This document shows, in pieces, positions 5,182 to 62,373 of a stretch of DNA of 64,000 nucleotides. The stretch spans positions 11,831 to 75,830 of the forward strand of contig JAUYOV010000004.1 in assembly GCA_030697795.1 (NCBI GenBank), read 5' to 3'. The stretch's first letter is position 1, and each line of letters begins with the position of its first letter. The position numbers and the translations under genes were made by a program. This DNA comes from a bacterium. Its GTDB lineage: Bacteria > Patescibacteriota > Minisyncoccia > JACQLN01. The notes under the pieces are model-generated. The model saw only the letters and a program-made list of their open reading frames with translations, did not search any database and was not told the DNA's origin.

Positions 5182-5191
5182 ATATTAATAA

Positions 5192-5273
5192 ATATATCAT
5201 CCCGAGTAGCATCATGGAGAAGACTATTTATATAAATAAAGAGGCTCCATGTCGTCTGCGAGGGGTGATATAT
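5192..5273. repeat. Copy A of the ~80-nt intergenic hairpin element, a candidate REP-doublet (REPIN-like; core CCGAGCAGCATTATGGAGAAGACT...AGGCTCCATATCGTCTGCGAGG)
   Basis: One of 4 copies sharing a ~60-nt core (about 80-90% identity by eye), with terminal inverted arms (ATATATCATCCC/GGGTGATATAT) that covary between copies. Confidence 0.8.
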
Positions 5274-5289
5274 TTACGCCAATAAACAC

Positions 5290-8267: not shown

Positions 8268-8354
8268 CAATCGCATCATTCCGAGCAGCATTATGGAGAA
8301 GACTAAATTATAAATAAAGAGGCTCCATATCGTCTGCGAGGAGTGATGCGATTG
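8268..8354. repeat. Copy B of the ~80-nt hairpin element
   Basis: Same core; terminal arms CAATCGCATCA/TGATGCGATTG. Confidence 0.8.
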
Positions 8355-9691: not shown

Positions 9692-9713
9692 GGTAATGGT
9701 AAAAAATTTAAAA

Positions 9714-9793
9714 AACATTGTCCCGAGCAGCATTATGGAGAAGACTATTTTATAAAATAAAGAGGCTCTATATCGTCTGCGAGGGATAATGTT
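9714..9793. repeat. Copy C of the ~80-nt hairpin element; fills the whole adk-map spacer
   Basis: Same core; arms AACATTGTCCC/GGGATAATGTT. Confidence 0.8.
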
Positions 9794-9795
9794 TT

Positions 9796-10362
9796 TTATA
9801 ACCCCAGTACCTGTTTAATTCGCAAATGAATTTCCTCTATACTACCCATACCATCAACCTTAATCAACCTATTCGATTTTTCGTAATATTCTATAGCTGG
9901 CATTGCATCGGTATTAAACCATTCCAAACGATGACGAATTGATTCTTCGGTATCATCTTTGCGTCCGCGTTTTAAAAGCCTTGTTACTGCTTCGTCTTCT
10001 GTAATATCTATTAAAACAACTTTAATATCTACTCTACCCAACCAACTTAAAACTTCGTCTATTTCTTTGGCTTCATCTAAACGACGAGGTGAGCCGTCAA
10101 AAATTATATTTTCTCCATCTTTTAATTTATAAACTAGTTCCTTCTGCCATAAAAAAGCGGCAATCCACTCTGGGGGCAGACCACCAGAATCCACAACTTC
10201 TTTAACTTTTTTACCAGCTAAAGTCTCTTCTTTTTCTAATAAACGAAAAAGATCGCCGGCGTAAATATAAAGACAGGGTTCTATAAGCTTTTTTAAAAGC
10301 TTAACCTGCGTGCCCTTACCCGACCCCGATCTGCCTAAAACGATTATGGTTTTACTAGACAT
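9796..10362 (-). CDS. adk: Adenylate kinase
   Basis: GRSGSGKGTQ P-loop and DGSPRRLDEA; start taken at MSSKT. Confidence 0.8.
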   Translation of the reverse strand: MSSKTIIVLGRSGSGKGTQVKLLKKLIEPCLYIYAGDLFRLLEKEETLAGKKVKEVVDSGGLPPEWIAAFLWQKELVYKLKDGENIIFDGSPRRLDEAKEIDEVLSWLGRVDIKVVLIDITEDEAVTRLLKRGRKDDTEESIRHRLEWFNTDAMPAIEYYEKSNRLIKVDGMGSIEEIHLRIKQVLGL

Positions 10363-11884: not shown

Positions 11885-14806
11885 ATGGTAACCAATATGG
11901 ATCTCTCTAGATTTAAAAAAGAACTAGGCGCCTTAAACCCCGAACAACGCCAAGCGGTGGAGACAATTGAGGGACCGGTTATGGTTATAGCCGGCCCTGG
12001 TACGGGAAAAACACAAATTTTAACTTTGCGGATTGCTAATATTTTAAACAAAACCGACACCAACCCCGAAAATATTCTAGCTTTAACTTTTACTGAATCT
12101 GCTACCGCCAACATGAGGCGTCGTCTAACCAGTTTGATCGGTACGCCTAGCTACTACATTAATATCCATACTTTTCACGGTTTTTGTAACAAGCTTATCC
12201 AAGATTACCCAGAAAACTTTCCAAAAATAATTGGCTCCACCAATGCTAATCAAGTAGATCAAATACAAATTATTAGAAAGATTATAGACGAGCATGGTTT
12301 TAAGAATTTGAAGCCATTCGGTAGTAAGTATTATTACGTTACCGAAATACTAAAAAACATCCGCCAATTAAAAAGCGAAGGTATTGGTCCTGTTGAATTT
12401 AAAAATATAACTTCTAAAATAAATCTCGAAGACCCCAAAGAGGAAAAAAATACCGAACGCTTAAAAGAACTATCTTTGGTATATAAAAAATATCAAGCCG
12501 AACTTTCAAAAAGAAAGCTATACGATTTTGAAGATATGATTTTGGAAACCATAAATTCGCTCAAAAAAGATAAGGATTTTTTGTTAGACCTTCAAGAAAA
12601 ATACCAATACATATTAGTAGACGAACACCAAGACACCAACGGCGCCCAAAATAAAGCCTTAGAGCTTTTAACCAATTATGATGAGAACCCAAACTTGTTT
12701 GTGGTAGGCGACGAAAAACAAGCTATTTACCGTTTTCAAGGCGCTAGTTTAGAAAACTTTTTATATTTTAAAGAAAAGTTTAAAAAAGCGAAATTAGTAG
12801 AATTAAAACAAAATTATCGCTCTACCCAAAAAATATTGGATGCCTCACATAGCTTAATAAAAAAAAATATAGCTGTCTTGGCTTTAACCAAACTCCAAGC
12901 CCAAAAAGGCAGGACCGACCTTCCTAGAAGGTCGGTCCTGCAGGTGGCAACCTGCGCTACACCCGAAATAGAATACCTTTTTATAACTCAAAAAATAAAA
13001 GAACTTCTAAGGCAAAAGGTTGAAGCTAGCAAAATTGCAATCTTATATAGAGAAAATAAAGATGCTTTTTCTGTTTCCGACTTTTTAACTAAACAGAATA
13101 TAAAACACGGCATAGAATCCGATGAAAACATATTAGAAGATATGGATATTAAAAAACTAAATATTCTTTTTGATGCCATAGAAAACTTTCCTTCTTTAGA
13201 ATTTTTAGCTCCAGCCTTACACCTAGATTTTTTAAATATAAACCCCTTAGAAGCTTATAAAGCCATAGAATCAAAAGATTTTAATAGTTCGCCTAATGTG
13301 TCTAACCTATTTAAAAAAATAGGTGAGCTTAAAAAATATAGCCGTAATAATGTTTTTGTTAAATTTTTTGAAAAAGTAATAAACGATACTGGTTTTTTAA
13401 AAAACATACTGGCCGAGGCCAATTACAACGAAAGATTAAATAAACTTCATGCTTTGTTTAGCGAAGTTAAAAAAATAAATTTTGCTAACCACAATTTTTC
13501 TTTACCAAACTATCTAAATCATTTAGAAATTTTAAGGGAACATAACTTGCCTATTCAAATTAAAACAAAAACATTACCCGCAAATGTTCGCTTAATGACG
13601 GCTCACCGAGCCAAAGGCCTAGAATTTGATTATGTATTTATTATAGGCGCCTACAATGGCCATTGGGGCAATAAAAGAAATATGAGCCATATAAAACTCC
13701 CCATAAAAACAAGCTTTGATGCTGATAAAATAGAAAAAAACGAGGATGAGCGCAGATTGTTTTATATGGCCATCACTCGAGCCAAAAAAGAAGCTTACAT
13801 AAGTTATTCCACTTCTTCGTTTGACGGCAAAGAGCAAGTGCCTAGCCAATTTATAAACGAAATCGATCCCGCCTTAAAAGAAGAACATATAATTGAGCAA
13901 AATCCAGAAATTAAAAAAATTGTACTAGCTTCAATTTCTAATAACAAAGCACCAAAAACAAATGAAAAAACTTTTGTGGTAGATATATTTTTGCGCCGTG
14001 GCTTCTCGCCTACCTCGCTAAATAATTATTTAACCTGCCCCTGGAATTTTTTCTATAACAATCTGCTTCGCATACCCAAAGCCCAAGCCAACTATTTAAT
14101 TTATGGCAACGCCAAGCACAAGGCCTTACAGCTTTTTTTTGATGAGAAAGAAAAAAATAAAAAAATAGGCTCTAAATTTATAATAGAAAAATTTATAGAA
14201 GATTTACGAAATTACCCTTTAATACCGAAGGATCATGAAACCTTGCTTAAAAAAGGAATAGAAAGTTTAACCGCCTATTATAATTTTTATAAAGATTCTT
14301 GGCCCGAAAAAACAGTAAACGAATACAACATTAAAGGAGTTAGTTTTAACTTAGGCGCGCAAGAAATAAAACTAAGCGGAAAACTAGATCGCTTAGAACT
14401 AAAACCAAATAGCCCAGCTGTTACAGTAGTAGATTACAAAACTGGAGCCGCCAAAAGCCGAAACGAAATTTTAGGCAACACCAAAAACGCCGATGGTAAT
14501 TATTTTAGACAACTTGTTTTCTACAAATTGCTTTTAGATATGTTACCCAACAAAAAATATAATATGCTGGCTGGTGCAATTGACTTCACTGAACCCCTCG
14601 ACTCCGCTCGACAAGGCTCGGGGCAAGCCGCTCGGGGCAAGCCTGCCTTTAAAAGAGAGGTTTTTGAAATTTCTAACGAAGAAACAAAAGCACTTAAAGA
14701 AACTATCACTAAATGCGCAAATGAAATTTTAAACTTAAAATTTTGGAACAAACTCTGCGGTGAAAAAGATTGTGAATATTGCGAGTTAAGAAAGTTAGTT
14801 TCTTAA
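11885..14806 (+). CDS. UvrD/PcrA-family SF1 helicase fused to a C-terminal PD-(D/E)xK nuclease domain with a Cas4/AddB-like Cys cluster
   Basis: AGPGTGKT Walker A, DEHQDTN motif II, DRLELK...VVDYKTG nuclease core, C...CGEKDCEYC. Contains two in-frame GC-rich inserts. Confidence 0.8.
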   Translation: MVTNMDLSRFKKELGALNPEQRQAVETIEGPVMVIAGPGTGKTQILTLRIANILNKTDTNPENILALTFTESATANMRRRLTSLIGTPSYYINIHTFHGFCNKLIQDYPENFPKIIGSTNANQVDQIQIIRKIIDEHGFKNLKPFGSKYYYVTEILKNIRQLKSEGIGPVEFKNITSKINLEDPKEEKNTERLKELSLVYKKYQAELSKRKLYDFEDMILETINSLKKDKDFLLDLQEKYQYILVDEHQDTNGAQNKALELLTNYDENPNLFVVGDEKQAIYRFQGASLENFLYFKEKFKKAKLVELKQNYRSTQKILDASHSLIKKNIAVLALTKLQAQKGRTDLPRRSVLQVATCATPEIEYLFITQKIKELLRQKVEASKIAILYRENKDAFSVSDFLTKQNIKHGIESDENILEDMDIKKLNILFDAIENFPSLEFLAPALHLDFLNINPLEAYKAIESKDFNSSPNVSNLFKKIGELKKYSRNNVFVKFFEKVINDTGFLKNILAEANYNERLNKLHALFSEVKKINFANHNFSLPNYLNHLEILREHNLPIQIKTKTLPANVRLMTAHRAKGLEFDYVFIIGAYNGHWGNKRNMSHIKLPIKTSFDADKIEKNEDERRLFYMAITRAKKEAYISYSTSSFDGKEQVPSQFINEIDPALKEEHIIEQNPEIKKIVLASISNNKAPKTNEKTFVVDIFLRRGFSPTSLNNYLTCPWNFFYNNLLRIPKAQANYLIYGNAKHKALQLFFDEKEKNKKIGSKFIIEKFIEDLRNYPLIPKDHETLLKKGIESLTAYYNFYKDSWPEKTVNEYNIKGVSFNLGAQEIKLSGKLDRLELKPNSPAVTVVDYKTGAAKSRNEILGNTKNADGNYFRQLVFYKLLLDMLPNKKYNMLAGAIDFTEPLDSARQGSGQAARGKPAFKREVFEISNEETKALKETITKCANEILNLKFWNKLCGEKDCEYCELRKLVS

Positions 14807-19654: not shown

Positions 19655-19699
19655 CAAGATTAGCTTATTAGATCGTTAGCTTCCTAGAAAATTCCTAGA

Positions 19700-19729
19700 A
19701 AGCTAAAAGCTAAAAGCTAAAAGCTAAAA
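19700..19729 (+). repeat. (GCTAAAA)x4 microsatellite directly abutting the ssb start codon
   Basis: Perfect heptamer tandem; no SD present. Confidence 0.8.
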
Positions 19730-20227
19730 ATGAATCTTAACAAAATATTTGTCCTGGGCAATTTAACCCGAGACCCCGAGGTGCGTTCTCTGCCATCGGG
19801 CGGAAGCGTGGCCAGTTTTGCGGTAGCCACCAATAGAGTTTGGAATGATAAAAACGGGCAAAAACAACAAGACACCCAATTTCATAATGTTGTTGTATTT
19901 GGCAAAATGGCCGACATCTGCGCTAAATATCTTAACAAAGGCAAAATGGTTTTGGTGGAAGGCAGAATCCAAAACCGCAGTTGGGATGCGCCAGATGGCA
20001 CAAAAAAATATAGAACCGAAATCGTCGCCGAAGGCATTCAATTAGGGCCAAAAACAGCTGGCGAAACAAGCGGAGCAAGTTTTACATCTAATAGGCCAGA
20101 TACTCCCGTAGCCAATAAACCACAAGGACAAAACCAAAAAGCCGCCTCGCAGAATGCGCGGGAAGAAAATATACCTATAATAGAACAGGATGCGGAAGAA
20201 GTTGATATTTCGGATATACCATTTTAA
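19730..20227 (+). CDS. ssb: Single-stranded DNA-binding protein
   Basis: OB-fold N-terminus, Gly/Gln-rich tail, C-terminal DIPF. Confidence 0.9.
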   Translation: MNLNKIFVLGNLTRDPEVRSLPSGGSVASFAVATNRVWNDKNGQKQQDTQFHNVVVFGKMADICAKYLNKGKMVLVEGRIQNRSWDAPDGTKKYRTEIVAEGIQLGPKTAGETSGASFTSNRPDTPVANKPQGQNQKAASQNAREENIPIIEQDAEEVDISDIPF

Positions 20228-23653: not shown

Positions 23654-26044
23654 TTAGGAAAAATTTTCTTTGTTTTCCTCTTCTGTGTGTATATCTATAG
23701 CTTCTGGTGGAACTTCTGATTTTACTAAAACCTCTCTAGGTTTAGCCCCTTCACCGGGACCAATCATGCCTTGAGCTTCTAGAATATCGAGTAATCTTGC
23801 GGCGCGGGCGTAGCCGACTCTTAATCGTCTCTGGAGTAAAGAAGCCGAAGCTTTACCAGCCTGCATAATAGCTTCTTTGGCTTGGAGTAAAAGTTCATCT
23901 TCGTCACTAGAATCCATTTTATCAAAACTTACACCGGTAAGTATTGGTCTATGATCTGAGACAGCTTTTTCCAAACCAAGCGCTTCTTCTGGATTAGCAT
24001 CAGGCGCGTCTTCGGGTAGATTAGATCTTATAAACGAAACAACTTTTTTAACTTCTTTTTCCGAAACAAAAGTGCCTTGAATACGTTTGGGCTTGGGCGA
24101 ATCAGAAGTTACAAAAAGCATATCGCCCATGCCTAAAAGTTTTTCGGCGCCAGCCGAATCTATAATTGTCCGTGAATCTATTTGCGAAGCCACCGCAAAA
24201 GCTATGCGCGTGGTAATGTTAGCTTTAATTAAACCCGTAATAACTTCTACCGAGGGCCGCTGTGTGGCTAAAACCAAATGTATGCCCACCGCCCGCGCCA
24301 TCTGCGCTAAACGCACTACTGTAGCTTCTATTTCACGCCCGTAAGTAGACATTAAGTCGGCCAGTTCATCTATAATGATAACCAAATAAGGCATTAAATC
24401 GTCGCCTTTTTTAGCATCAACTTGAGAATTAAAACCGCCAATATCTCTAACTTTTTTTTCGGAAAGCAGGCTATATCTTCTTTCCATTTCTGAAGTCGCC
24501 CATTTTAAAGCCGACACCGCTTTTTTAGGCTCTACTATAACTGGGGTTAAAAGATGCGGAATACCATTATACAAAGTTAATTCAACTCTTTTAGGATCAA
24601 TCATTATAAAGCGTAAAATTTCTGGCGAATGTTGATACAGCAAATTAACAATTAACGAATTTATGGCTACGCTTTTACCCGAACCCGTGGCGCCCGCAAT
24701 AAGCAGATGAGGCATTCTGGTTAAAGCCGACCACATCGACCGGCCAGAAACATCTTTGCCTAAACCAATATTTAAAAAGTTTTTATGCTCCGAAGCCTCA
24801 AAACCCTGAAGCAAAGCTTTTAAACGCACCACCATAGATTTTTGATTGGGTATTTCTATGCCCACTAAAGATTTTCCCGGAATCGGCGCTTCTATTCTTA
24901 AAGATTCTCCGCCTAGGGCTAAAGATAAATCTTTTTGCAAAGCTAATATGCTAGCCAGTTTGACTCCAGTGGCTGGTTTTAAAGTAAACTGGGTTACCGC
25001 AGGGCCAATATTAACTTCCGACATTTCTACCGGAATATTAAAATTCTCTAAAGTTTTCTGAATAATTATGGCATTGCCCTTAATGTCGCCCGTCACCGGC
25101 ATAGAGCCTTCGTCTTCTAATAAATCTAATGGTGGAAATTTATAGTTAACGGAAAGTGGCAACACACTAAATCCGCTCGCCATATTTTCTTGTTTCTTTT
25201 TTGAAACCTCATCTGACTTGGCCATTACTGACGTACCTTGAGGAGAATTTATAGTGACAGTGTCTTCAGCCGGTTTGGGCGCTTCAACTTTTTTAGCGGT
25301 TTGAGGTAGTTTAGCTTTGCTGGCTAACGTTGCAATTTTAGTTACTAAACCTTTTTCTAAAACTAATTTTTTTTCTGGAATCATTTCGCCATTTTCGTCC
25401 GCCTTAAAAACAAATTTTTCTTTTATTTGATCTTTCAAAGGCAAACGAAAAACAATCAACATAGCCGAAAAGAAAAACGCCACAAAAAATATTAAAGAAC
25501 CCCAAAAACCAAACATCTGCCTAAACGGCCAGCCAAAATAATAACCCATTTTACCGCCAGCCTGATTTTGCGAAAATATTTCCATCAAGCCCAAAAAACT
25601 TAAAATTAGAACACTGCCCCCGATTATAGTGGAACCTAATATTTTTTTCTTGTCGGAAGTTAAAATAAAAAACGACATTAAAAACATCGTTAAAGGCACA
25701 AAGAAACTACCGGAACCAAACATATAATCGGCACCGGCTGTAATGGCTTCGGAAAAAGATCCCGACAAGCCAAAGAAAGCTAAGGTAGTTACCAAAGCCA
25801 CAGCCAGCAAAAGAACGCCCACTACGCTTCTTTTAACGCTTGATTCTAAATGGAGCCAAGAAGTTGTTCTTTTTGGCTTTTTTACTTGAGATTTTTTAAG
25901 ATTTTTAATATCCTCCTTTTCTTTTTCAGCAGGCATTAGGTTTAATCTATTACTAGAAAATAATAACATACAAAAAAGCCAAATAACAACAACGTTTTTC
26001 AGGAAGGGCGGTCCTTCCGATAGATTTCCTGCTATTTTTGGCAA
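23654..26044 (-). CDS. ftsK: DNA translocase FtsK/SpoIIIE; true start downstream of the ORF-track start, whose first codons overlap a REP
   Basis: GATGSGKS Walker A, C-terminal gamma wHTH domain, N-terminal TM segments. Confidence 0.9.
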   Translation of the reverse strand: MPKIAGNLSEGPPFLKNVVVIWLFCMLLFSSNRLNLMPAEKEKEDIKNLKKSQVKKPKRTTSWLHLESSVKRSVVGVLLLAVALVTTLAFFGLSGSFSEAITAGADYMFGSGSFFVPLTMFLMSFFILTSDKKKILGSTIIGGSVLILSFLGLMEIFSQNQAGGKMGYYFGWPFRQMFGFWGSLIFFVAFFFSAMLIVFRLPLKDQIKEKFVFKADENGEMIPEKKLVLEKGLVTKIATLASKAKLPQTAKKVEAPKPAEDTVTINSPQGTSVMAKSDEVSKKKQENMASGFSVLPLSVNYKFPPLDLLEDEGSMPVTGDIKGNAIIIQKTLENFNIPVEMSEVNIGPAVTQFTLKPATGVKLASILALQKDLSLALGGESLRIEAPIPGKSLVGIEIPNQKSMVVRLKALLQGFEASEHKNFLNIGLGKDVSGRSMWSALTRMPHLLIAGATGSGKSVAINSLIVNLLYQHSPEILRFIMIDPKRVELTLYNGIPHLLTPVIVEPKKAVSALKWATSEMERRYSLLSEKKVRDIGGFNSQVDAKKGDDLMPYLVIIIDELADLMSTYGREIEATVVRLAQMARAVGIHLVLATQRPSVEVITGLIKANITTRIAFAVASQIDSRTIIDSAGAEKLLGMGDMLFVTSDSPKPKRIQGTFVSEKEVKKVVSFIRSNLPEDAPDANPEEALGLEKAVSDHRPILTGVSFDKMDSSDEDELLLQAKEAIMQAGKASASLLQRRLRVGYARAARLLDILEAQGMIGPGEGAKPREVLVKSEVPPEAIDIHTEEENKENFS
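26000..26032. repeat. REP1 palindrome CAGGAAGGGCGGTCCTTCCGATAGATTTCCTGC at the 3' end of RAYT-1
   Basis: Further copies at 26526-26542 (inside RAYT-1), 26735-26750, 59691-59722; related sequence inside the helicase CDS at 12909-12941. Confidence 0.8.
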
Positions 26045-26706
26045 TCTTTATAGGAAAGCCAATCAAGAATAAAATCATCAAAGTCCTTTACACCGTCGAA
26101 ATAATCTGGAAAAGCTTTTTTGTTGATAATTTTTTGCTCTAATCTTTGAACACCTACATAATCAAGATAACTGGAATAATTATAACCATTTAAAAAATTT
26201 TGGGCCGCTAATTTATTTTTAATACCAGTTTCTTTCCAGTTAGGTTCAATCAACTTAATAGAATTTAAGTGTGTATAGGCAAAAATATATTTCAGATATT
26301 CATCTCTTTCAATATGTTTTGCTTGAAACCTTCCCTGAAATAAAGAACCGCTACGATCATGTCTTTTATTGAAATACATGGAATAACCGGTGGATACTTT
26401 TCCCATAAATTTAGAGAGTCCACCTTCTACAGTTTCTCTTGCAAGTAAATGGAAATGATTCGGCATTAATACATGTGCGCCTAAAGCAGTAATATCATCG
26501 CCAGTATTTACATCAAAAATATCTGGGAAGGACCGCCCTTCCAAAAGAAGCTCATTGATATCTACACGGTCATTGTTATTACAAAGATAAAGGAGCATCA
26601 AAAAACGTCTATATTCGCCTGTAGATTCAAATATAGTCCTCTTATCCACACCTCGATTGTAGATATGATAATATTCCCCTACAGAGAAAGTGAATTTACG
26701 TTGCAT
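26032..26706 (-). CDS. REP-associated tyrosine transposase (RAYT; IS200-like HuH Y1 transposase), copy 1
   Basis: GEYYHIYNRGV, HuH motif LMPNHFHLL, catalytic-Tyr helix region; flanked by REP1 palindromes. Confidence 0.7.
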   Translation of the reverse strand: MQRKFTFSVGEYYHIYNRGVDKRTIFESTGEYRRFLMLLYLCNNNDRVDINELLLEGRSFPDIFDVNTGDDITALGAHVLMPNHFHLLARETVEGGLSKFMGKVSTGYSMYFNKRHDRSGSLFQGRFQAKHIERDEYLKYIFAYTHLNSIKLIEPNWKETGIKNKLAAQNFLNGYNYSSYLDYVGVQRLEQKIINKKAFPDYFDGVKDFDDFILDWLSYKDCQK

Positions 26707-30745: not shown

Positions 30746-30841
30746 AACACAGAATTTCTAATTTCCAATATCTAAATCCTAAACAATTTCTAAATTCTAA
30801 TTTTCCAGAATATATTTGGAGCATTGTGATTTGAGATTTGT

Positions 30842-32748: not shown

Positions 32749-32786
32749 GATCCCGCACCTTTTTAATTAAAAAGGTGCGGAATTTT
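32749..32786. terminator. Second copy of the CCCGCACCTTTTT/AAAAAGGTGCGG terminator hairpin
   Basis: Same stem as 20577-20617. Confidence 0.55.
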
Positions 32787-32789
32787 ATT

Positions 32790-32823
32790 TAGCATGAGCC
32801 ATGCGATCGCATGACTCATGCTA
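32790..32823. repeat. GCGATCGC-core palindrome TAGCATGAGCCATGCGATCGCATGACTCATGCTA (REP3 family)
   Basis: Family members at 50245-50280, 50896-50929, 52902-52931. Confidence 0.7.
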
Positions 32824-32862
32824 TTTTTTAAAAAAAGAAGAATATTTCTTCTTTTTTTAAAA

Positions 32863-33942: not shown

Positions 33943-34099
33943 AAATGTCTAATATCCAATTACTAATATCGAATCAATGACTAATTTATAAATGCCTAAT
34001 TTTGAATTTAGTTATTAGACATTGGGATTTGATTAGAAATTATCCCTCGATTGGGCTCGGGATCCTGAGCCTGTCGAAGGAGGTATTAGAAATTGGAAA

Positions 34100-37969: not shown

Positions 37970-38058
37970 GCAGAAATATTATCTTGAGCAGCATTGTGGA
38001 GAAGACTATTTATATAATAAAGAGGCTCCACATCGTCTGCGAGAGATAATGTTTCTGC
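37970..38058. repeat. Copy D of the ~80-nt hairpin element
   Basis: Same core; arms GCAGAAATATTATCT/AGATAATGTTTCTGC. Confidence 0.8.
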
Positions 38059-39074: not shown

Positions 39075-39269
39075 AATAGTATAAATTACGAAATTCTAAT
39101 ATCTAAATTCGAAACAATATCTAAATATTAAATTATAATTTGGAATTTTGAACATTGTGATTTGTTTAGAATTTAGTGCTTAGTATTTATAATTTTCTGC
39201 CGACTTTATACTAACATCCTAAAACCATTTTTCAAACTAATCAAAGTATGCTAATTTAAAGTCGTTAAA

Positions 39270-43425: not shown

Positions 43426-44031
43426 TTATCTTGAATAATATTCCAAAACTTTTGAAACCTCTACCGGTAGTCCAGCCAAAAATTCTTTATCGGGTATGCT
43501 GATTACTTTTCCGGAAAGCTTTTCTCTGTCTAATTCTAACCATCTGGGTGGATTAAATTTCTTTAAAATGGTTCTGGTTTCAGAAAAAGTTTTCTTGGCT
43601 TTGCTGGATTCTTTAATATCAACTAATTCACCGGGACTAACCGAATAAGATGGTGAACTAACTTTCTTACTATTTATTGTAATATGGCCATGCCCAACCA
43701 ACTGTCTGGAAGCGCGCCTAGTTGGTGCCAACCCCAATCTAAAAACTACGTTGTCTAGCCGGCGTTCTAAAAGTTCCATCATTATTTGAGGCGTAACGCC
43801 ACTTTTTTTAGAAGCTGTATCAAAATATTTTCTAAATTGTTTTTCTCTTAAGCCATAAATAAGCTTAAGTTTTTGTTTTTCGGCTTGCTGAACACCATAT
43901 TCCGAAAGACGGCGACGAATATTTTTGCCGTGCTGTCCCGGTGGATAAGGTTTGCGAACCATACCGCATTTAGCGGAATCACATAATTTATAGCCCAAGC
44001 GTCTACATTTTTTACAAGTTGATTGATACAT
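43426..44031 (-). CDS. rpsD: 30S ribosomal protein S4
   Basis: Zinc-ribbon CKKCRR, S4 domain. Confidence 0.9.
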   Translation of the reverse strand: MYQSTCKKCRRLGYKLCDSAKCGMVRKPYPPGQHGKNIRRRLSEYGVQQAEKQKLKLIYGLREKQFRKYFDTASKKSGVTPQIMMELLERRLDNVVFRLGLAPTRRASRQLVGHGHITINSKKVSSPSYSVSPGELVDIKESSKAKKTFSETRTILKKFNPPRWLELDREKLSGKVISIPDKEFLAGLPVEVSKVLEYYSR

Positions 44032-44100
44032 GTTTAGCTTTCTAGCTTCTTAGCTTTCTAGCTTCTTAGGATTTAACTAAAAAGCTAATAAACTAACATC

Positions 44101-44541
44101 CTAGACTCTACGCGGTTTAGGCGGTTTAGGACCATTGTGTGGCACCGGAGTTACGTCTTTTATAGAAGTAACATTTAAGCCCTGTCCCACCAAAGCCCTA
44201 ACGGCGGACTCCCTACCCGAACCAATGCCTTTAACAAAAACCACCACATCCTTTAAGCCAACCTTTTTCATTTTTTCTCCCAAAGTTTCGATTATTCTAT
44301 TAGCAGCGTATGGTGTAGCTTTTCTTGGACCCTTAAAACCCAAAGCACCGGCCGAAGATTGAGCAATTAAATTTCCCCCGGCATCTGTAAAACTAACTAA
44401 AGTATTATTGTAACTAGCTTGAATATAAACTCTACCCTTTTCTACAGCGCCAACTTTACGGCTCTGTACTGGAGCCACTTTAGCTTCGCTAGAAGCCTCA
44501 CCTGTTTTATCTTCTTTTTCTATAATTCTTTTTTTACCCAT
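44101..44541 (-). CDS. rpsK: 30S ribosomal protein S11
   Basis: Conserved S11 core. Confidence 0.9.
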   Translation of the reverse strand: MGKKRIIEKEDKTGEASSEAKVAPVQSRKVGAVEKGRVYIQASYNNTLVSFTDAGGNLIAQSSAGALGFKGPRKATPYAANRIIETLGEKMKKVGLKDVVVFVKGIGSGRESAVRALVGQGLNVTSIKDVTPVPHNGPKPPKPRRV

Positions 44542-45148: not shown

Positions 45149-45265
45149 CTATGCGCCTTGGCGCTGTTTATGTTTAGGATTCGAACAAATAACGTAAATG
45201 CGCCCCTTACGTCGAACGGTCTTACACTTATTACAAATTTTTTTAACTGATGGTTGAACTTTCAC
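45149..45265 (-). CDS. rpmJ: 50S ribosomal protein L36 (GTG start), missed by the ORF track
   Basis: Translation (M)[37 protein letters not shown]; canonical L36 with C-x2-C...C-x-H-x2-C zinc ribbon. Confidence 0.8.
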
Positions 45266-45335
45266 AAATAGCTTTTAGCTTTTAGCTTTTAGCTTCCTAG
45301 GTTTACCCTAAAAAGCTAGTCAGCTAAGAAGCTAA

Positions 45336-45551
45336 CTACCTCCCCCTATAAACAATCCTGCCTCTTTTAGGGTCGTATGGAGAAAATTCCATAGCAACTT
45401 TATCTCCCGGAAGAATGCGAATAAAATTTAGCCTCATCTTACCTGAAAGATGGGCTAGTACCTCCATGCCATCGTCTAATTTAACCTTAAACATGGCGCT
45501 GGGAAGAGCCTCTAATACGACTCCTTCCTTTCGGATAGCATCCTTTTTCAT
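45336..45551 (-). CDS. infA: Translation initiation factor IF-1
   Basis: Full-length S1-like IF-1. Confidence 0.9.
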
Positions 45552-48425: not shown

Positions 48426-50144
48426 CTATTCCACAGTAGCTCTGATTCTACGAATACCTGCACTTGAACTCTCTTCTTTAACTATACGAAACTTTCCTAT
48501 CTCACCAGTACTAGAAACATGTGGACCGCCACATAGTTCGCGAGAAAAATCGGCTATTGAATAAACCTTAACTTGATCGGGATAATTTCCCTGATAGAAA
48601 AACAAAGCTCCAGATTTTTTAGCTTCTGCCAGTGGCATAGTTTTTATCTTAACTGGATAATTTGCGGCAATGGCTTCGTTAACCAAATTTTCTACTTTTT
48701 TAATTTCTTCGTCTGTTAACTTACGATTAAAAACAAAATCAAAGCGAGTTCTTTCTATGGTTATGTCCGACCCACGTTGAGAAACTTCGTCGCCCAAAAC
48801 TTTATGCAAAGCGGCGTTTAGCAAATGCGTGGCCGTGTGCAAACGAGTTTTTATTTTCATCTCTTCGGCGTTGGCCGCGGTTAAGTCGCCTTCTGTGATT
48901 CCATGACCGCCAAATTTCTTCTCCGCCCCCGCCCGCGAAATTTCTTGGTGTTTTTTAAACTTTTCTTCAAAATCTTTTTCGTCTATACTCCTGCCAGATT
49001 TTATTGAAAGATCTTTGGTCAAATCAAAAGGAAATCCGTATGTAGTGTGTAATATAAATGGATCTACACCTTTCTCAAATTGTTTTAGACCCGAATATAA
49101 AGTTTCTCTAAATTTGTCTTCTTCTTTCTTAATTTCCTCTAAAATAAGGATTTTTTTTGTTTTCAGTTCCTGATAAAAGTTTCCATAACTCTCAATAACT
49201 GTTTCGGCTATAGGTATCTGAGATTTATCCGGATGAGTTATCCTGCGAATTAAACGCCTTAAAATATAACCTCTATCTGTATTAGATGGCACGACATCAT
49301 CGCTGATCATAAACACAGAAGCTCTAATGTGGTCGGCTATTATTCTTTTCGATCTCTGATCCTTCTCGGGTGTATTTTCCTCTATTTTTTTAAAAATAAA
49401 CTCAAACAAATCCGTCTCAAAAATATTTTGTTTCTCTTGAACTGCAACAGCTAACCTTTCTAAACCCATACCAGTGTCAACTCCCTTGATAGCCAAAGGT
49501 TCTAGAGTCTTATCGGCCTTACAGTAGTATTCGTTAAACACTATATTCCAAACCTCTACTGCCGCTTGACCTGAGCTTGTCGAAGGTTTAACGTATATTT
49601 CTGTAGTAGGTCCACACGGACCTTCCGCGCCGGTTGGACCCCAAAAATTATCTTTTCTACCAAACTTTTCTATTTTAGTAATTCCTAAAGATCTCCAAAT
49701 TTCTTCGGATTCCGTATCGGCAGGAACAATTAGACCAAAGCCCTCTTGCCCTGAGTCCATCGAAGGGTCAAAAACACTAACGTAATCAATCGCAAGATCC
49801 ATTTCTTTGGTTATAAATTCGTAAGCGTATTTAATAGCATCGGACTTAAAATAACCGCCAAAACTAAAATTCCCTAACATTTCAAAAAATGTTAGGTGGG
49901 TTTCATCGCCAACTTCATCTATATCAGAAGTGCGAAAAGATTTTTGAACAGAAACAGTATTTTTAGAACCAAAATCTTTTACTGGGTCTTTTTGACCTAT
50001 AAAGTAAGGCTTAAACTGCTGCATACCTGCGGTTGTTAAAAGAACCGAAGGATCGGTTGGCACAAGCGAACTAGACGGCACCACCTTATGCCCCCTTTCT
50101 TCAAAGAATTTTAAAAACCTTTGCCGAATCTCTTGAGAATCCAT
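48426..50144 (-). CDS. alaS: Alanyl-tRNA synthetase (short form, 572 aa); start at MDSQEIRQ
   Basis: Class II motifs, FLKFFEERGHK, editing-domain HxxxH region. Carries in-frame GC-rich inserts. Confidence 0.85.
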   Translation of the reverse strand: MDSQEIRQRFLKFFEERGHKVVPSSSLVPTDPSVLLTTAGMQQFKPYFIGQKDPVKDFGSKNTVSVQKSFRTSDIDEVGDETHLTFFEMLGNFSFGGYFKSDAIKYAYEFITKEMDLAIDYVSVFDPSMDSGQEGFGLIVPADTESEEIWRSLGITKIEKFGRKDNFWGPTGAEGPCGPTTEIYVKPSTSSGQAAVEVWNIVFNEYYCKADKTLEPLAIKGVDTGMGLERLAVAVQEKQNIFETDLFEFIFKKIEENTPEKDQRSKRIIADHIRASVFMISDDVVPSNTDRGYILRRLIRRITHPDKSQIPIAETVIESYGNFYQELKTKKILILEEIKKEEDKFRETLYSGLKQFEKGVDPFILHTTYGFPFDLTKDLSIKSGRSIDEKDFEEKFKKHQEISRAGAEKKFGGHGITEGDLTAANAEEMKIKTRLHTATHLLNAALHKVLGDEVSQRGSDITIERTRFDFVFNRKLTDEEIKKVENLVNEAIAANYPVKIKTMPLAEAKKSGALFFYQGNYPDQVKVYSIADFSRELCGGPHVSSTGEIGKFRIVKEESSSAGIRRIRATVE

Positions 50145-50244
50145 TGTGGCTTTATTGTAACGGAAAAAGGCTAATAAAATCAAAGTTGCTCAATCGCCCT
50201 ACCATCTAATATTTCGTATATTTAACTTCTTTAATAAAATCCAC

Positions 50245-50895: not shown

Positions 50896-50929
50896 TAGCA
50901 CGAGAACTGCGATCGCAGTTCTCGTGCTA
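50896..50929. promoter_or_regulatory. Perfect 34-nt palindrome TAGCACGAGAACTGCGATCGCAGTTCTCGTGCTA in the promoter region of PaaX-like paralog 2
   Basis: REP3 family; candidate operator. Confidence 0.5.
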
Positions 50930-51635: not shown

Positions 51636-51721
51636 TATGAGTCCTCCTTTTTGGGTAAAGGGTAAAGGATTTTAAATGAACCAATGGTATATTATACCAA
51701 TGCTGTTATTTTGTCAAATTA

Positions 51722-52690
51722 CTTGTAATGTCTCATATCTTATGCATAGGTTTTAGTTAGTATTTGAGCCATCTTTTGAGCAGGGGTTAAACCCTGTAAA
51801 CCTAGATGTGGACGATGGTTGATAAACTTGTCAGTGTAGGTTTTTAAGGAGCTATTCAAGGTGGTTAGAGACTGATTTAAGGATACTTTTCTCCAGAGTT
51901 CTTCGTCAATGGTTCTAATGAATCTCTCTACTATGGAATTGTCTCTAGGTTTTCTGATTCTTGAATAACGATGCAGAATCTTTAACTTGTTTAATTCTTG
52001 AACAAACTCTTTCTGAAACTCGGGACCATTATCTGTTTGAATCATCCCTACTTTAAAAGGTAATCTAGTTAAAGCTGATCGTAAAGCTCGGCTGGCTGAT
52101 GCCATAGAAAGTTTTTCTGTAACAATACAGACTGGATATATATCTGGTAGCCACATCCACGAAAACATACTGGTATCTTCTAGATTGATTTTTAACCATT
52201 AGATGCTTGGTATCTAACAAAACTAGCTTGCCGTCCTCTTGGGGTCTAAAGATGGGAGGTAGTTGTCTGTGTCTCCTTTGGTATCTATGTTTTGATTTAA
52301 TCAGCTGGTTTCTTTTAAGGACGCGGTAGGTTGTTATGTTGGTAATGCTGATACCTTGAGCCTTCAGGTAAAGAACTATCTTTTGATGACACCAACCCTC
52401 GGTTTTTCTTAAATGAATAATCTTTTCTTCTAACTCCAGAGAGGTCTGCTTGGGATGGGCACTTAAAGGCATCGGTCGAAAACTTTGAAGAGTGGGATAC
52501 ATACCCAACCAGCGGCTGATGGTAGATTGGTTGAAACCAAAGTATCTACTGATTCTCGACTGCGACCAACCTAACTCTTTAAGTTGCCAAACTTGGCGTC
52601 TGACTGCGATAATGTTTTTGTGAATGTGCATATATGGTGAGTGTATCATTTGACTACTCACCTATGCATTTTGAATGAAACATTACAATT
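51722..52690 (-). mobile_element. IS481-family-like insertion sequence (~970 bp) with imperfect ~30-bp terminal inverted repeats (TTGTAATGTYTCAT...ATGCATAGGT)
   Basis: Left IR 51722-51752 matches the reverse complement of right IR 52655-52690; encodes an HTH plus DDE (rve) transposase. Confidence 0.7.
51740..52661 (-). pseudogene. IS481-like DDE transposase split into two overlapping ORFs by a frameshift in a T5/A5 homopolymer (~52112-52116)
   Basis: The ORFs 52065..52661 (HTH plus start of rve) and 51740..52168 (DNGPEF...rve core) are related by a +1 shift. IS481 transposases are normally single-ORF. Confidence 0.55.
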
Positions 52691-53876
52691 ACTCTATAAC
52701 TCCTCCGCCTAGCAGTTCTTCACCCTGATAAAATACTACCGATTGGCCAGAGGCGACAGCGCGGACTGGTTTTTCAAAAACCACCTTCCACCGAGCTGAG
52801 CTCGGTCCGCTTTCAAGCTTTGATAACATTGCCGAAATTGGTTCTTGTCTGTAACGAATAGATGCCTGAATTTTAACCAACTTCTCTGATTCCTCTTTTG
52901 TACACCGAGCATACGATCGTATGCTCGGTGTATCATTATTTATAAAACTAACATTAGTAGCAATTAACTCTTTTGATTCTAAAGCCGACATATCTGTAAT
53001 AGGCGAAACGATTAAAGTATTAGTTTCGTAATCTTTTTTAGCAACGTAATACGGCCCAGTACCTCCTATGCCGATTCCTTTTCGTTGGCCAATGGTGTAA
53101 AAATATAAACCGGCATGTGTGCCAATTTTTTGCCCAGAAGTTGTAACAATATCGCCAATTTCTTTTTTAACGTACGGCTTTATAAATTCTTTAATATCCA
53201 CCGGCCCCATAAAACAAATTCCCTGTGAATCCTTTTTATTTGCCGTAGATAAACCCGCACCTTTCGCAAGTTTTCTAACTTCCGCTTTAGAGTCTATTTC
53301 GCCTATGGGGAATAAGCACTTAGCCAGTTGTTTTTGCTTGAGAGTCCAAAGGAAATAGGACTGATCTTTGTCTAAATAGCGAGCACGCAATAGCTTATAG
53401 CTTTTAGCTTTTAGCTTATTAGAATTTGAAAATTGGAAATTAAAAATTGGAAATTCCCGCGCCACGCGAGCATAGTGGCCCGTGGCAATATAATCAGCTC
53501 CAAGAGAAATAGCTTTTTCAAAAAATAAACCAAATTTAATTTCTTTATTACACATTACATCTGGGTTTGGAGTTCGCCCAACTGCATATTCGCGAAGCAT
53601 ATAATCTACCACCAAAGCTTTATATTCTTTTGTAAAATCCCAAGTTTCAAAGGGTATATTTAATTTTAAACAAACCCGCATAGCATCAGCACGATCTTCC
53701 TGCCACAAGCAAGGCCAAGCTGGATCGCTCCAGTTTTTCATAAATACACCGATTACATTATAGCCTTCATTTTTCAATAACAAAGCAGCAACAGAGCTAT
53801 CAACTCCGCCACTCATGCCTACATAAACCTTTCGACTCCGCTCAGGGCAAGTTTTTTGACCAACCGTATTTGACAT
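52689..53876 (-). CDS. mnmA: tRNA-specific 2-thiouridylase MnmA
   Basis: VGMSGGVDSSV PP-loop. Carries three in-frame repeat insertions; the IS abuts its stop codon. Confidence 0.85.
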   Translation of the reverse strand: MSNTVGQKTCPERSRKVYVGMSGGVDSSVAALLLKNEGYNVIGVFMKNWSDPAWPCLWQEDRADAMRVCLKLNIPFETWDFTKEYKALVVDYMLREYAVGRTPNPDVMCNKEIKFGLFFEKAISLGADYIATGHYARVAREFPIFNFQFSNSNKLKAKSYKLLRARYLDKDQSYFLWTLKQKQLAKCLFPIGEIDSKAEVRKLAKGAGLSTANKKDSQGICFMGPVDIKEFIKPYVKKEIGDIVTTSGQKIGTHAGLYFYTIGQRKGIGIGGTGPYYVAKKDYETNTLIVSPITDMSALESKELIATNVSFINNDTPSIRSYARCTKEESEKLVKIQASIRYRQEPISAMLSKLESGPSSARWKVVFEKPVRAVASGQSVVFYQGEELLGGGVIE

Positions 53877-59690: not shown

Positions 59691-59722
59691 CAGGAAGGGC
59701 GGTCCTTCCGATAAATTTCCTA
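59691..59722. repeat. Distant copy of REP1 (CAGGAAGGGCGGTCCTTCCGATAAATTTCCTAG)
   Basis: About 33 kb from RAYT-1. Confidence 0.75.
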
Positions 59723-59740
59723 GGTTTTTAGCAAATAAAA

Positions 59741-62240: not shown

Positions 62241-62373
62241 AATTTATAAATTTCTAATATCTAATTTCTAATCAAATTCTAATGCCTAATAACTAAAGTA
62301 TAAATTTTGGCATTAGACCTTTGGTAATTAGTCATTGATTAGGAATTAGTAATTAGATGTTAGTCATTTTTTA

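Follow-up and report, generated by a model that had tools for sequence, protein, structure and literature searches.

The mnmA gene examined here lies in a 64,000-nucleotide stretch of contig JAUYOV010000004.1 (the window; 38% G+C) from an ultra-small groundwater bacterium of the Patescibacteria, or candidate phyla radiation (CPR). An earlier note on this DNA had identified the gene, had singled out three segments within it as members of different repeat families inserted in frame, and had placed an insertion sequence (IS) at its stop codon. Using a 25-sequence protein alignment together with codon alignments against seven, and later ten, orthologs with DNA, we found that the three named segments are indeed in-frame insertions relative to the nearest orthologs (P0002, 84% identity; P0004-7 and P0009, about 80%) and to solved MnmA structures, and that a fourth is present besides. 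Relative to the closest relatives the four inserts add 24, 54, 42 and 12 nt, all multiples of three and with no stop in the frame used, and for each of the three segments first named, further members of its repeat family exist elsewhere in the window or in related genomes.

The identity of the host gene is well supported. Its product passed the equivalog cut-offs of NCBIfam NF001138 (412.5 bits; cut-off 284) and TIGR00420 (373.5 bits; cut-off 237), contained, in a Pfam scan that covered six ORFs of the window, the domains PF03054, PF20259 and PF20258, corresponding to the PP-loop HUP domain, the PRC barrel and the C-terminal beta-barrel, and matched PDB entry 2hma with an E-value of 1.5e-90 in a search of solved structures. 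An AlphaFold model with an overall predicted local distance difference test score (pLDDT) of 89.3 superposed on 2hma (S. pneumoniae) and 2det/2deu (E. coli) with template modelling scores of 0.83/0.90 and root-mean-square deviations of 2.2-2.7 A. The PP-loop motif SGGVDS (S22-S27) was invariant in 83 orthologs, as were C109 and C221, which we take to be the counterparts of the catalytic cysteines of E. coli MnmA. From these sequence and model comparisons the gene is predicted to be a working mnmA encoding a tRNA 2-thiouridine(34) synthase, with s2U34 formation as its predicted activity. An identical protein has been recorded from a 278-kb contig of a metagenome-assembled genome (MAG), the closest relatives are Patescibacteria/CPR MAGs, many of them from groundwater, and the gene order DUF8128, TrwB-like, DUF192, mnmA, PaaX_M-like, alaS is conserved in 10 related loci. 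A protein scan of genome contigs with MnmA returned mostly 45-50% identical genes from Bacillota and other CPR bacteria and one close locus, and yielded no empty-site junctions. Across the whole window, Rfam at the gathering threshold reported two tRNAs and nothing else.

The palindrome had been described as a 30-nt element at 52902-52931 encoding TPSIRSYARC; this description is exact, and the perfect complementarity extends to 32 nt. It sits in a 42-nt insert (52890-52931, codons 316-329, TPSIRSYARCTKEE) that is missing from P0002, P0007 and P0018 and that lies, in the model, in the loop between strands E300-311 and E334-339 with pLDDT 62-74. Perfect palindromes of at least 18 nt numbered five in the window and zero to one in shuffled windows. 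The RNA hairpin predicted from the mnmA copy is stable (-24.8 kcal/mol, z -7.7), with a U-tract missing in the sense direction, whereas neither the N-terminal element (z +1.6) nor the AT-rich block (z -1.0) gave a signal of RNA structure.

Perfect, loop-less CGATCG-centred palindromes of 20-38 nt recur in the window (50896, 52901 and, with one mismatch, 32790) and in related loci (L002 5897/6671/7315; L008 6202/6862; L009 831/6129; L090-L108), mostly just 3' of genes. The copies have in common the frame YGAG-N4-5-CGATCG-N4-5-CTCR, while the other positions differ between them yet remain self-complementary. When we scored the flanks of distinct CGATCG sites in CPR loci, at least 10 of 13 flanking positions were complementary at 12 of 50 sites, eight of them perfectly, compared with 1 of 481 sites built on twelve other hexamer centres; such specificity suggests that a process acting on this sequence is involved, one that lends itself to a search. 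A 22-nt core pattern matched 19 metagenome loci, nearly all from Hainich groundwater, every match being a perfect palindrome of 28-40 nt, and found no matches in viral contigs. Two metagenome loci carried palindromes in frame within other genes, one for a 539-aa membrane protein (RITSIRSYARDT) and one for a KsgA-like protein (PHTASMRSHARCMF). The hexamer itself is not enriched in the window (8 sites against 5.98 expected, a count reached in 23 of 100 shuffles). Some intergenic copies combine a hairpin with an A-tract on one side and a T-tract on the other, and so resemble terminators that work in both directions. The strict CGATCG centre and the all-or-nothing perfection of the arms suggest either template-switch correction or a CGATCG-specific enzyme. 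A literature search that did not cover all journals turned up no paper on such elements in CPR bacteria, and the palindrome family appears to be undescribed.

Three further observations concern this family. The copy between convergent genes is the middle one of three palindromes in a row (32753-32862), preceded by CCGCACCTTTTTAATTAAAAAGGTGCGG and followed by an A/T-rich palindrome of 17+17 nt. The KsgA-like gene (L098 752-1186, minus strand) has a low-complexity KDNKDNKDKNNIDKNNIDKNN stretch beside its in-frame palindrome, again resembling repeat-derived filler. We also considered whether the family is unusually free of stops in all frames, and rejected the idea: the excess is too weak (9 of 21 copies against 24% expected), and the two intergenic window copies contain stops.

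The AT-rich block, previously placed at about 53393-53450, is present as two tandem arrays detected by Tandem Repeats Finder (TRF) at 53390-53455 (ATAGCTT x4.3 and ATTGGAAATTAAAA x2.7). The segment is 54 nt longer than its counterpart in P0002 and P0007, and is missing from the alignment with S. pneumoniae MnmA, E. coli MnmA being correspondingly shorter. It forms the tip of a modelled beta-hairpin (E136-141/E159-164; pLDDT 60-69). The two halves of the block have different relatives: the (CTAAAAG)n half matches an intergenic element of family D18, with non-repeat flanks included in the match, and can be aligned as well to two copies that adjoin start codons (19660-19735 and 44026-44110), and the (AATTTCC)-type half aligns, inverted, with a 51-nt leader element, D1. 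The third CTAAAAG unit reads CTATAAG at precisely the point where an unaltered unit would introduce the stop TAA in frame, a direct trace of selection on the reading frame. The block is thus made of heptamer arrays of the leader type and is no discrete mobile element. At the DNA level, CPR genomes in GTDB have different heptamers at the same site (AAATTCA, CGAAATC, CCCCAAA, AAAGTTC and GCAAAGT), and the corresponding peptides are recognisable as translations of heptamer arrays (EFPISNFQF..., IENSLKIENCK, IRNPKSEI, KSQIPNPKSQ, NSKFKIQN).

The leader elements themselves form two groups in the window. D1, built of AATTTCT-like heptamers, occurs at 30753-30803, 33944-33994, 39084-39134 and 62242-62292, in each case 2-10 nt ahead of a start codon on the minus strand. 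It has the look of a common 5' leader or promoter module, and in gene sense it includes a TTGGAAATT motif. A composite element, (TAGCTTT)n-TAGCTTCCTAGG-...-CTAAAAAGCTA, occurs at 19660-19735, 44026-44110 and 45258-45340, and in two copies its (AAAGCTA)n lies 0-3 nt upstream of an ATG (genes starting at 19730, plus strand, and 44031, minus strand).

The GC-rich element that had been noticed near the N-terminus is located, as its family core CGACTCCGCTCAGGGCAAG, at 53833-53851 on the plus strand; it too is in frame and has relatives. Allowing one mismatch, the core GCTCRGGGCAAG occurs five times in the window against 0.25 expected, a number reached in none of 100 shuffles, with the remaining copies in alaS and in a 973-aa open reading frame (ORF) whose segment has the 12-mer TCGACTCCGCTC in common with the mnmA copy. 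Within the window, elements of the TCGAC..GCTCRGGGCAAG type are exclusively intragenic. The mnmA insert is missing in P0002, P0004 and P0007, which retain MSN..RKVY, a related element (CTTGCCCTGAG) occupies the same position in P0012, and the region has pLDDT below 50 in the model; both alaS inserts are likewise missing from most alaS orthologs. Related GC-rich pieces occur elsewhere in the mnmA genes of relatives: PGRAS (P0004/6), ACGEPAES (P0007), VPSAAEG (P0004) and KACLERLVPSHVEGS (P0018/23). A scan for GC islands at 13/18 GC was too unspecific and was set aside.

The fourth insert was not on the list of the earlier note. Its 12 nt create the 15-nt palindrome given in Table 1, and its peptide lies in a modelled loop between E347-353 and E363-372. 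P0003, P0017 and P0028 also have GPSSA, and P0019 has a variant of it.

Directly beyond the stop codon lies the IS481-like element, whose right end had been put within 2 nt of the stop; the gap is in fact 0 nt. Its terminal inverted repeats comprise 9 perfectly complementary nucleotides (TTGTAATGT at 51723-51731 and ACATTACAA at 52680-52688) within 32-nt arms that are 78% complementary. The right copy of the target duplication includes the mnmA stop (TTA at 52689-52691, plus strand), GTAA consisting of the third base of the terminal Glu codon and the TAA that follows. The duplication spans the stop, and mnmA was therefore not altered by the insertion. The transposase is encoded in two overlapping ORFs, 52065-52661 and 51740-52168, which match positions 3-166 and 168-283 of the 284 positions of NF033577, the best family for both halves (E 8e-21 and 1e-23); owing to the split, neither half, at 75 and 84 bits, reaches the cut-off of 224 bits. 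The halves are offset by +1 at an A5 run (~52114-52118, profile position ~167; minus strand CAGAAAAACTTT, 52090-52140), and the frameshifted gene begins 27 nt downstream of mnmA in the same orientation. Programmed frameshifting was considered and rejected, as the shift needed is +1 at A5 and not the usual -1; the likelier cause is a mutation, which would make it a pseudogene, or a homopolymer error. The element has one copy in the window, none in the fetched loci, and follows mnmA in 0 of 10 related loci; its insertion is a separate, lineage-specific event. Its right end contains a promoter-like site (TTGCCA-18-GATAAT with TG, 52584-52613, plus strand) that faces mnmA in antisense, and on that strand the mnmA palindrome (52900-52933) is terminator-like by score.

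Table 1. Coordinates of mnmA, its inserts, the adjoining insertion sequence and related elements (window positions unless a related locus, L, is named).
Feature	Position	Strand	Basis
mnmA coding sequence, 395 aa, intact	52689-53876	-	profile, structure and ortholog matches
GC-rich in-frame insert CAAAAAACTTGCCCTGAGCGGAGT, 24 nt, QKTCPERS, codons 7-14	53835-53858	-	codon alignment
AT-rich block, 63 nt, codons 141-161, EFPIFNFQFSNSNKLKAKSYK; (AATTTCC)-type array, then (CTAAAAG)n array	53394-53456	-	TRF, codon alignment
Perfect palindrome TACACCGAGCATACGATCGTATGCTCGGTGTA, 32 nt	52901-52932	.	inverted-repeat search
12-nt insert CCGAGCTCAGCT (gene sense), PSSA, codons 358-361	52794-52805	-	codon alignment
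15-nt palindrome CCGAGCTGAGCTCGG (plus-strand reading)	52791-52805	.	codon alignment
IS481-like insertion sequence, 966 bp	51723-52688	-	inverted repeats, NF033577 match
4-bp target duplication TTAC (gene sense GTAA)	left 51719-51722, right 52689-52692	.	direct reading
Intergenic CGATCG palindrome TAGCACGAGAACTGCGATCGCAGTTCTCGTGCTA	50896-50929	.	inverted-repeat search
CGATCG palindrome, one mismatch, between convergent genes	32790-32823	.	inverted-repeat search
Intergenic (TAGCTTT)n element, most similar to the (CTAAAAG)n half of the mnmA block	45267-45300	+	family D18, 91% over 34 nt
In-frame copies of the GC-rich family, 973-aa ORF, PLDSARQGSGQAARGKPA	14593-14648	+	core search
Two in-frame GC-rich copies in alaS: STSSGQAA (49565-49576), DSGQEGFGLI (49745-49756)	49565-49756	-	core search
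Selfish-type genes in relatives	L001 1562-1816; L004 2321-2695; L006 7392-7754; L009 2795-3157		

We then compared the positions of the inserts with the fold of the protein. The only low-confidence parts of the model are four stretches outside the MnmA core, residues 1-10 (mean pLDDT 45), 141-160 (60-69), 311-330 (62-74) and 351-360 (76). They coincide with the four inserts, the first in the N-terminal tail and the others each between two beta-strands. In a sample of 120 CPR MnmA orthologs, at least four extra residues were present in the N-terminal tail of 65, after aa 140 in 80, after aa 315 in 10 and after aa 356 in 51; inserts at the aa-140 site reach 47 aa, and there are about a dozen more sites with a singleton insert. 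The gene had been proposed to be an insertion hot spot, and this holds in the sense that the same four sites are length-variable clade-wide. It does not hold in the sense of unique targeting: the sites are loops, and alaS is also affected, with at least five patchy insert sites among its orthologs, whereas the TrwB-like and DUF8128 genes have nearly none. Because the sites coincide with loops and with the low-confidence parts of the model, tolerance is a better explanation than targeting, and the hot spots may most simply be read as permissive loops filtered by selection, with no targeting required.

Distribution among orthologs indicates how old the inserts are. A neighbour-joining (NJ) tree places next to the window gene, as its sister group, a clade (P0002, 4, 5, 6, 7, 9) without any of the four, and inserts are shared with more distant genes: P0003 has an EFPI-type block, a palindrome and GPSSA, P0012 has the N-terminal element, and P0017, P0019 and P0028 have GPSSA or its variant. 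Peptides of the EFPI(S/F)NFQF type occur at the aa-140 site in more than 20 of the 120 orthologs, down to about 50% identity. The earlier note had named the presence of the inserted peptides in distant orthologs as the finding that would speak against insertion, and in part they are present there (the EFPI type, GPSSA in four others, and the N-terminal element in P0012). Since inserts at the same sites are shared by distant orthologs and lacking in the nearest, they are old and patchy and not recent hits, neither private to this genome nor demonstrably recent. The palindromes at the aa-315 site differ by lineage, with a perfect 36-38-nt CGATCG palindrome in P0011, a perfect one of 20 nt in P0013, one of 36 nt with a CTGCAG centre in P0003, and quasi-palindromes (9-10/10-11) in P0012/14/21. 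Repeated gain, repeated precise loss and allelic exchange may each have contributed to this distribution.

Collectively, these data lead us to favor, with a probability of roughly 65%, the interpretation that a working mnmA carries at four permissive surface positions short pieces of the genome's own repeats, translated as floppy loops. The sources would be GC-rich elements, AT-rich heptamer arrays whose usual place is directly ahead of a start codon, and CGATCG palindromes usually found just 3' of genes, and we infer that entry into coding DNA would have occurred by a copy-and-paste or template-switch process. Copies would have survived where their length was a multiple of three, where the frame used held no stops and where they fell in a loop, and survival of such copies only would leave the same four sites length-variable across the clade. 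Inserts would then have been gained, lost or exchanged among related lineages, and the IS481-like element would have inserted directly after the stop, duplicating GTAA and leaving mnmA intact.

Several points weigh against this interpretation. Target duplications and clean junctions are undefinable for inserts this short, with a nearest ortholog only 84% identical, and the mechanism of insertion is deduced and was not observed. The 64 kb of genome examined yield small family copy numbers, and the argument about gain and loss rests on a crude NJ tree. Most CPR orthologs have enlarged loops at aa 140 and aa 356, and these loops could therefore have a role. Finally, the window allele comes from a single assembly (P0001, one contig), although similar inserts exist in independent assemblies.

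An alternative that we regard as possible, if doubtful, is a single ancient insertion at each site in an ancestor of this Patescibacteria clade, followed by evolution in place and repeated precise loss, with the palindrome changing in sequence yet kept self-complementary, for example by intrastrand template switching that mends quasi-palindromes. Consistent with this, the window gene, P0011, P0012, P0013 and P0003 all have the palindrome centre at a fixed distance of 27-30 nt beyond codon F311, while the arms range from 10 to 19 nt; every member of the clade of P0010-14 and P0021 has the aa-315 insert (in P0010 as judged from the peptide only); P0013 differs from P0012/14/21 by one compensated pair change at the orthologous site; and the N-terminal tails of the window protein and P0012 are homologous across the insert. 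Template switching has also been proposed as maintaining perfect coding palindromes in Nematomorpha mitochondria (PMC6649704). However, evolution in place would need at least five independent precise losses on the NJ tree as opposed to three gains. Moreover, the frame of the CGATCG core in the window and P0011 differs from that in P0013 and P0012, the centre in P0003 is CTGCAG, P0004 has an unrelated GC-rich element at the same site, and HDSMRLLQQSHA is common to P0003 and P0010, which belong to different clades, pointing to exchange.

For the AT-rich block alone, replication slippage in a tolerant hairpin could take the place of import from intergenic leaders, and its construction from tandem heptamers, together with the differing heptamer arrays at exactly the aa-140 site in many CPR orthologs, is what slippage would leave. 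Nonetheless, the addition of single 7-nt units shifts the frame, the match to the intergenic copy extends over non-repeat flanks, and the other half of the block aligns with the D1 leader family. We therefore hold slippage as the sole origin to be rather unlikely.

The inserts might instead be functional and selected, as loops that bind tRNA or a partner or, in the case of the hairpin, by pausing or terminating transcription or translation between MnmA domains. Expansion of the aa-140 and aa-356 loops in most CPR orthologs, the high stability of the palindrome hairpin, and its terminator-like plus strand facing the promoter-like site in the IS end would fit such roles, but the nearest relatives do without all four inserts, different lineages have unrelated sequences at one and the same site, the segments are of low confidence in the model, and their DNA is in common with non-coding repeats, all of which make a selected function improbable. 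An assembly or annotation artefact, whether chimeric joins or a true start downstream of the GC-rich element, is very improbable: despite the single contig behind the window allele, the inserts are internal and in frame with conserved MnmA sequence on both sides, the conserved MSN start precedes the N-terminal insert, and several samples, assembled independently, have inserts equivalent to these.

Beyond mnmA, we would put forward only as a tentative idea, one that may well prove wrong, that the palindromes represent an undescribed class of DNA element in this groundwater Patescibacteria clade. Such elements would be perfect palindromes with the frame GAG-N4-5-CGATCG-N4-5-CTC whose self-complementarity is actively kept by template-switch correction or a CGATCG-specific enzyme, and they would have spread to the 3' ends of genes and, where the reading frame permits, to the loops of housekeeping proteins; along with heptamer arrays and GC-rich elements they would provide a general route from non-coding repeats to disordered protein segments in CPR bacteria.

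Proteins of CPR/Patescibacteria are often longer and more variable in length than their homologues, and where the additional segments come from is seldom traced. In the present case a conserved enzyme has four additional loops, each of them linked to a repeat or palindromic motif, three of them to families with other copies, and empty-site orthologs are at hand. The locus thus provides a concrete case of non-coding DNA turned into protein sequence in a reduced genome, and repeat-derived inserts of this kind can be a source of error when CPR genes are called, aligned or placed in trees.

Other repeats and variable sites were recorded in the window and in related loci. An intergenic element of about 86 nt, with four copies 81-86% alike (5190-5275, 8283-8340, 9711-9796 and 37986-38043), has the ends GTCCCGAGCAGC...GTCTGCGAGGGA with outer inverted repeats and no Rfam match, and short GC-rich inserts in relatives' mnmA, GTCCCGAGTGCAGCCGAGGGA (L006) and GTCCCGAGCCATGTTGAGGGA (L008), look like its joined ends. 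A further repeat, CAGGAAGGGCGGTCCTTCCGATA.., with a short GC hairpin, lies at 26000-26045, 26525-26542 (reverse complement) and 59691-59736, two copies being 83% alike over 46 nt. Orthologs of alaS have other patchy inserts (PSTALGAG, TRTDADLTRNN and GPSLDSGSPSGRP), and the TTG start of the window alaS (48426-50183) is probably 13 codons too early, since orthologs begin MDSQEIRQ. Between the DUF8128 and TrwB-like genes, relatives variably hold small genes of selfish type, either GIY-YIG or 23S_rRNA_IVP/bAvd four-helix-bundle; the window has none.

Among known systems, the closest analogue is provided by the Rickettsia palindromic elements (RPEs), which are dispersed repeats found both between genes and in frame within housekeeping genes, with an old, lineage-specific proliferation; dispersed copies and compatibility with the fold hold true here as well. 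RPEs are tolerated in frame, and an RPE-7-like insert of 63-84 bp occurs in pheT (PMC1779305). RPEs are, however, 100-150 bp long, imperfect and confined to Rickettsiales, whereas the inserts described here measure 12-63 nt, belong to three unrelated families, include perfect CGATCG palindromes and occur in Patescibacteria, and the resemblance is one of behaviour only and not of membership, no relationship in sequence being expected. Mitochondrial genes of Nematomorpha contain coding perfect inverted repeats with dynamic gain and loss and an all-or-nothing arm identity that suggests active symmetrisation, for example by template switching (PMC6649704), but their arms reach 284 bp in conserved protein regions, as opposed to bacterial, loop-adding inserts of 20-40 nt with a fixed hexamer centre. 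The cyanobacterial highly iterated palindrome HIP1 (GCGATCGC), linked to orphan methyltransferases recognising CGATCG and GATC (PMC4390886, PMC5861425), resembles the present family in its CGATCG/GCGATCGC core and its occurrence inside and outside genes; HIP1 is nevertheless an 8-mer over-represented 15-300-fold, while CGATCG is not enriched here and about a quarter of its sites are the centres of 28-40-nt palindromes. Repetitive extragenic palindromic (REP) elements, 20-40-bp palindromic repeats that are mostly extragenic and near the 3' ends of genes (PMC3733652), are similar in size and placement to the palindromes described here, but the REP tag GTAG/CGTC is missing in the window copies, which start aTAGCA or gTACAC, and the arms vary between copies yet stay perfectly complementary. 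In Borg proteins, tandem DNA repeats within ORFs add disordered segments and evolve fast (PMC9879509); the unit here differs in being 7 nt, not a multiple of three, the same arrays also occur as 5' leader modules, and the gene is a bacterial housekeeping gene. Lastly, the element beyond the stop codon is like the IS481 family in its DDE transposase, which has its best matches to NF033577, short terminal inverted repeats, short target duplication and length of about 1 kb, and differs in that its transposase is split by a +1 frameshift into halves that fall below the family cut-off.

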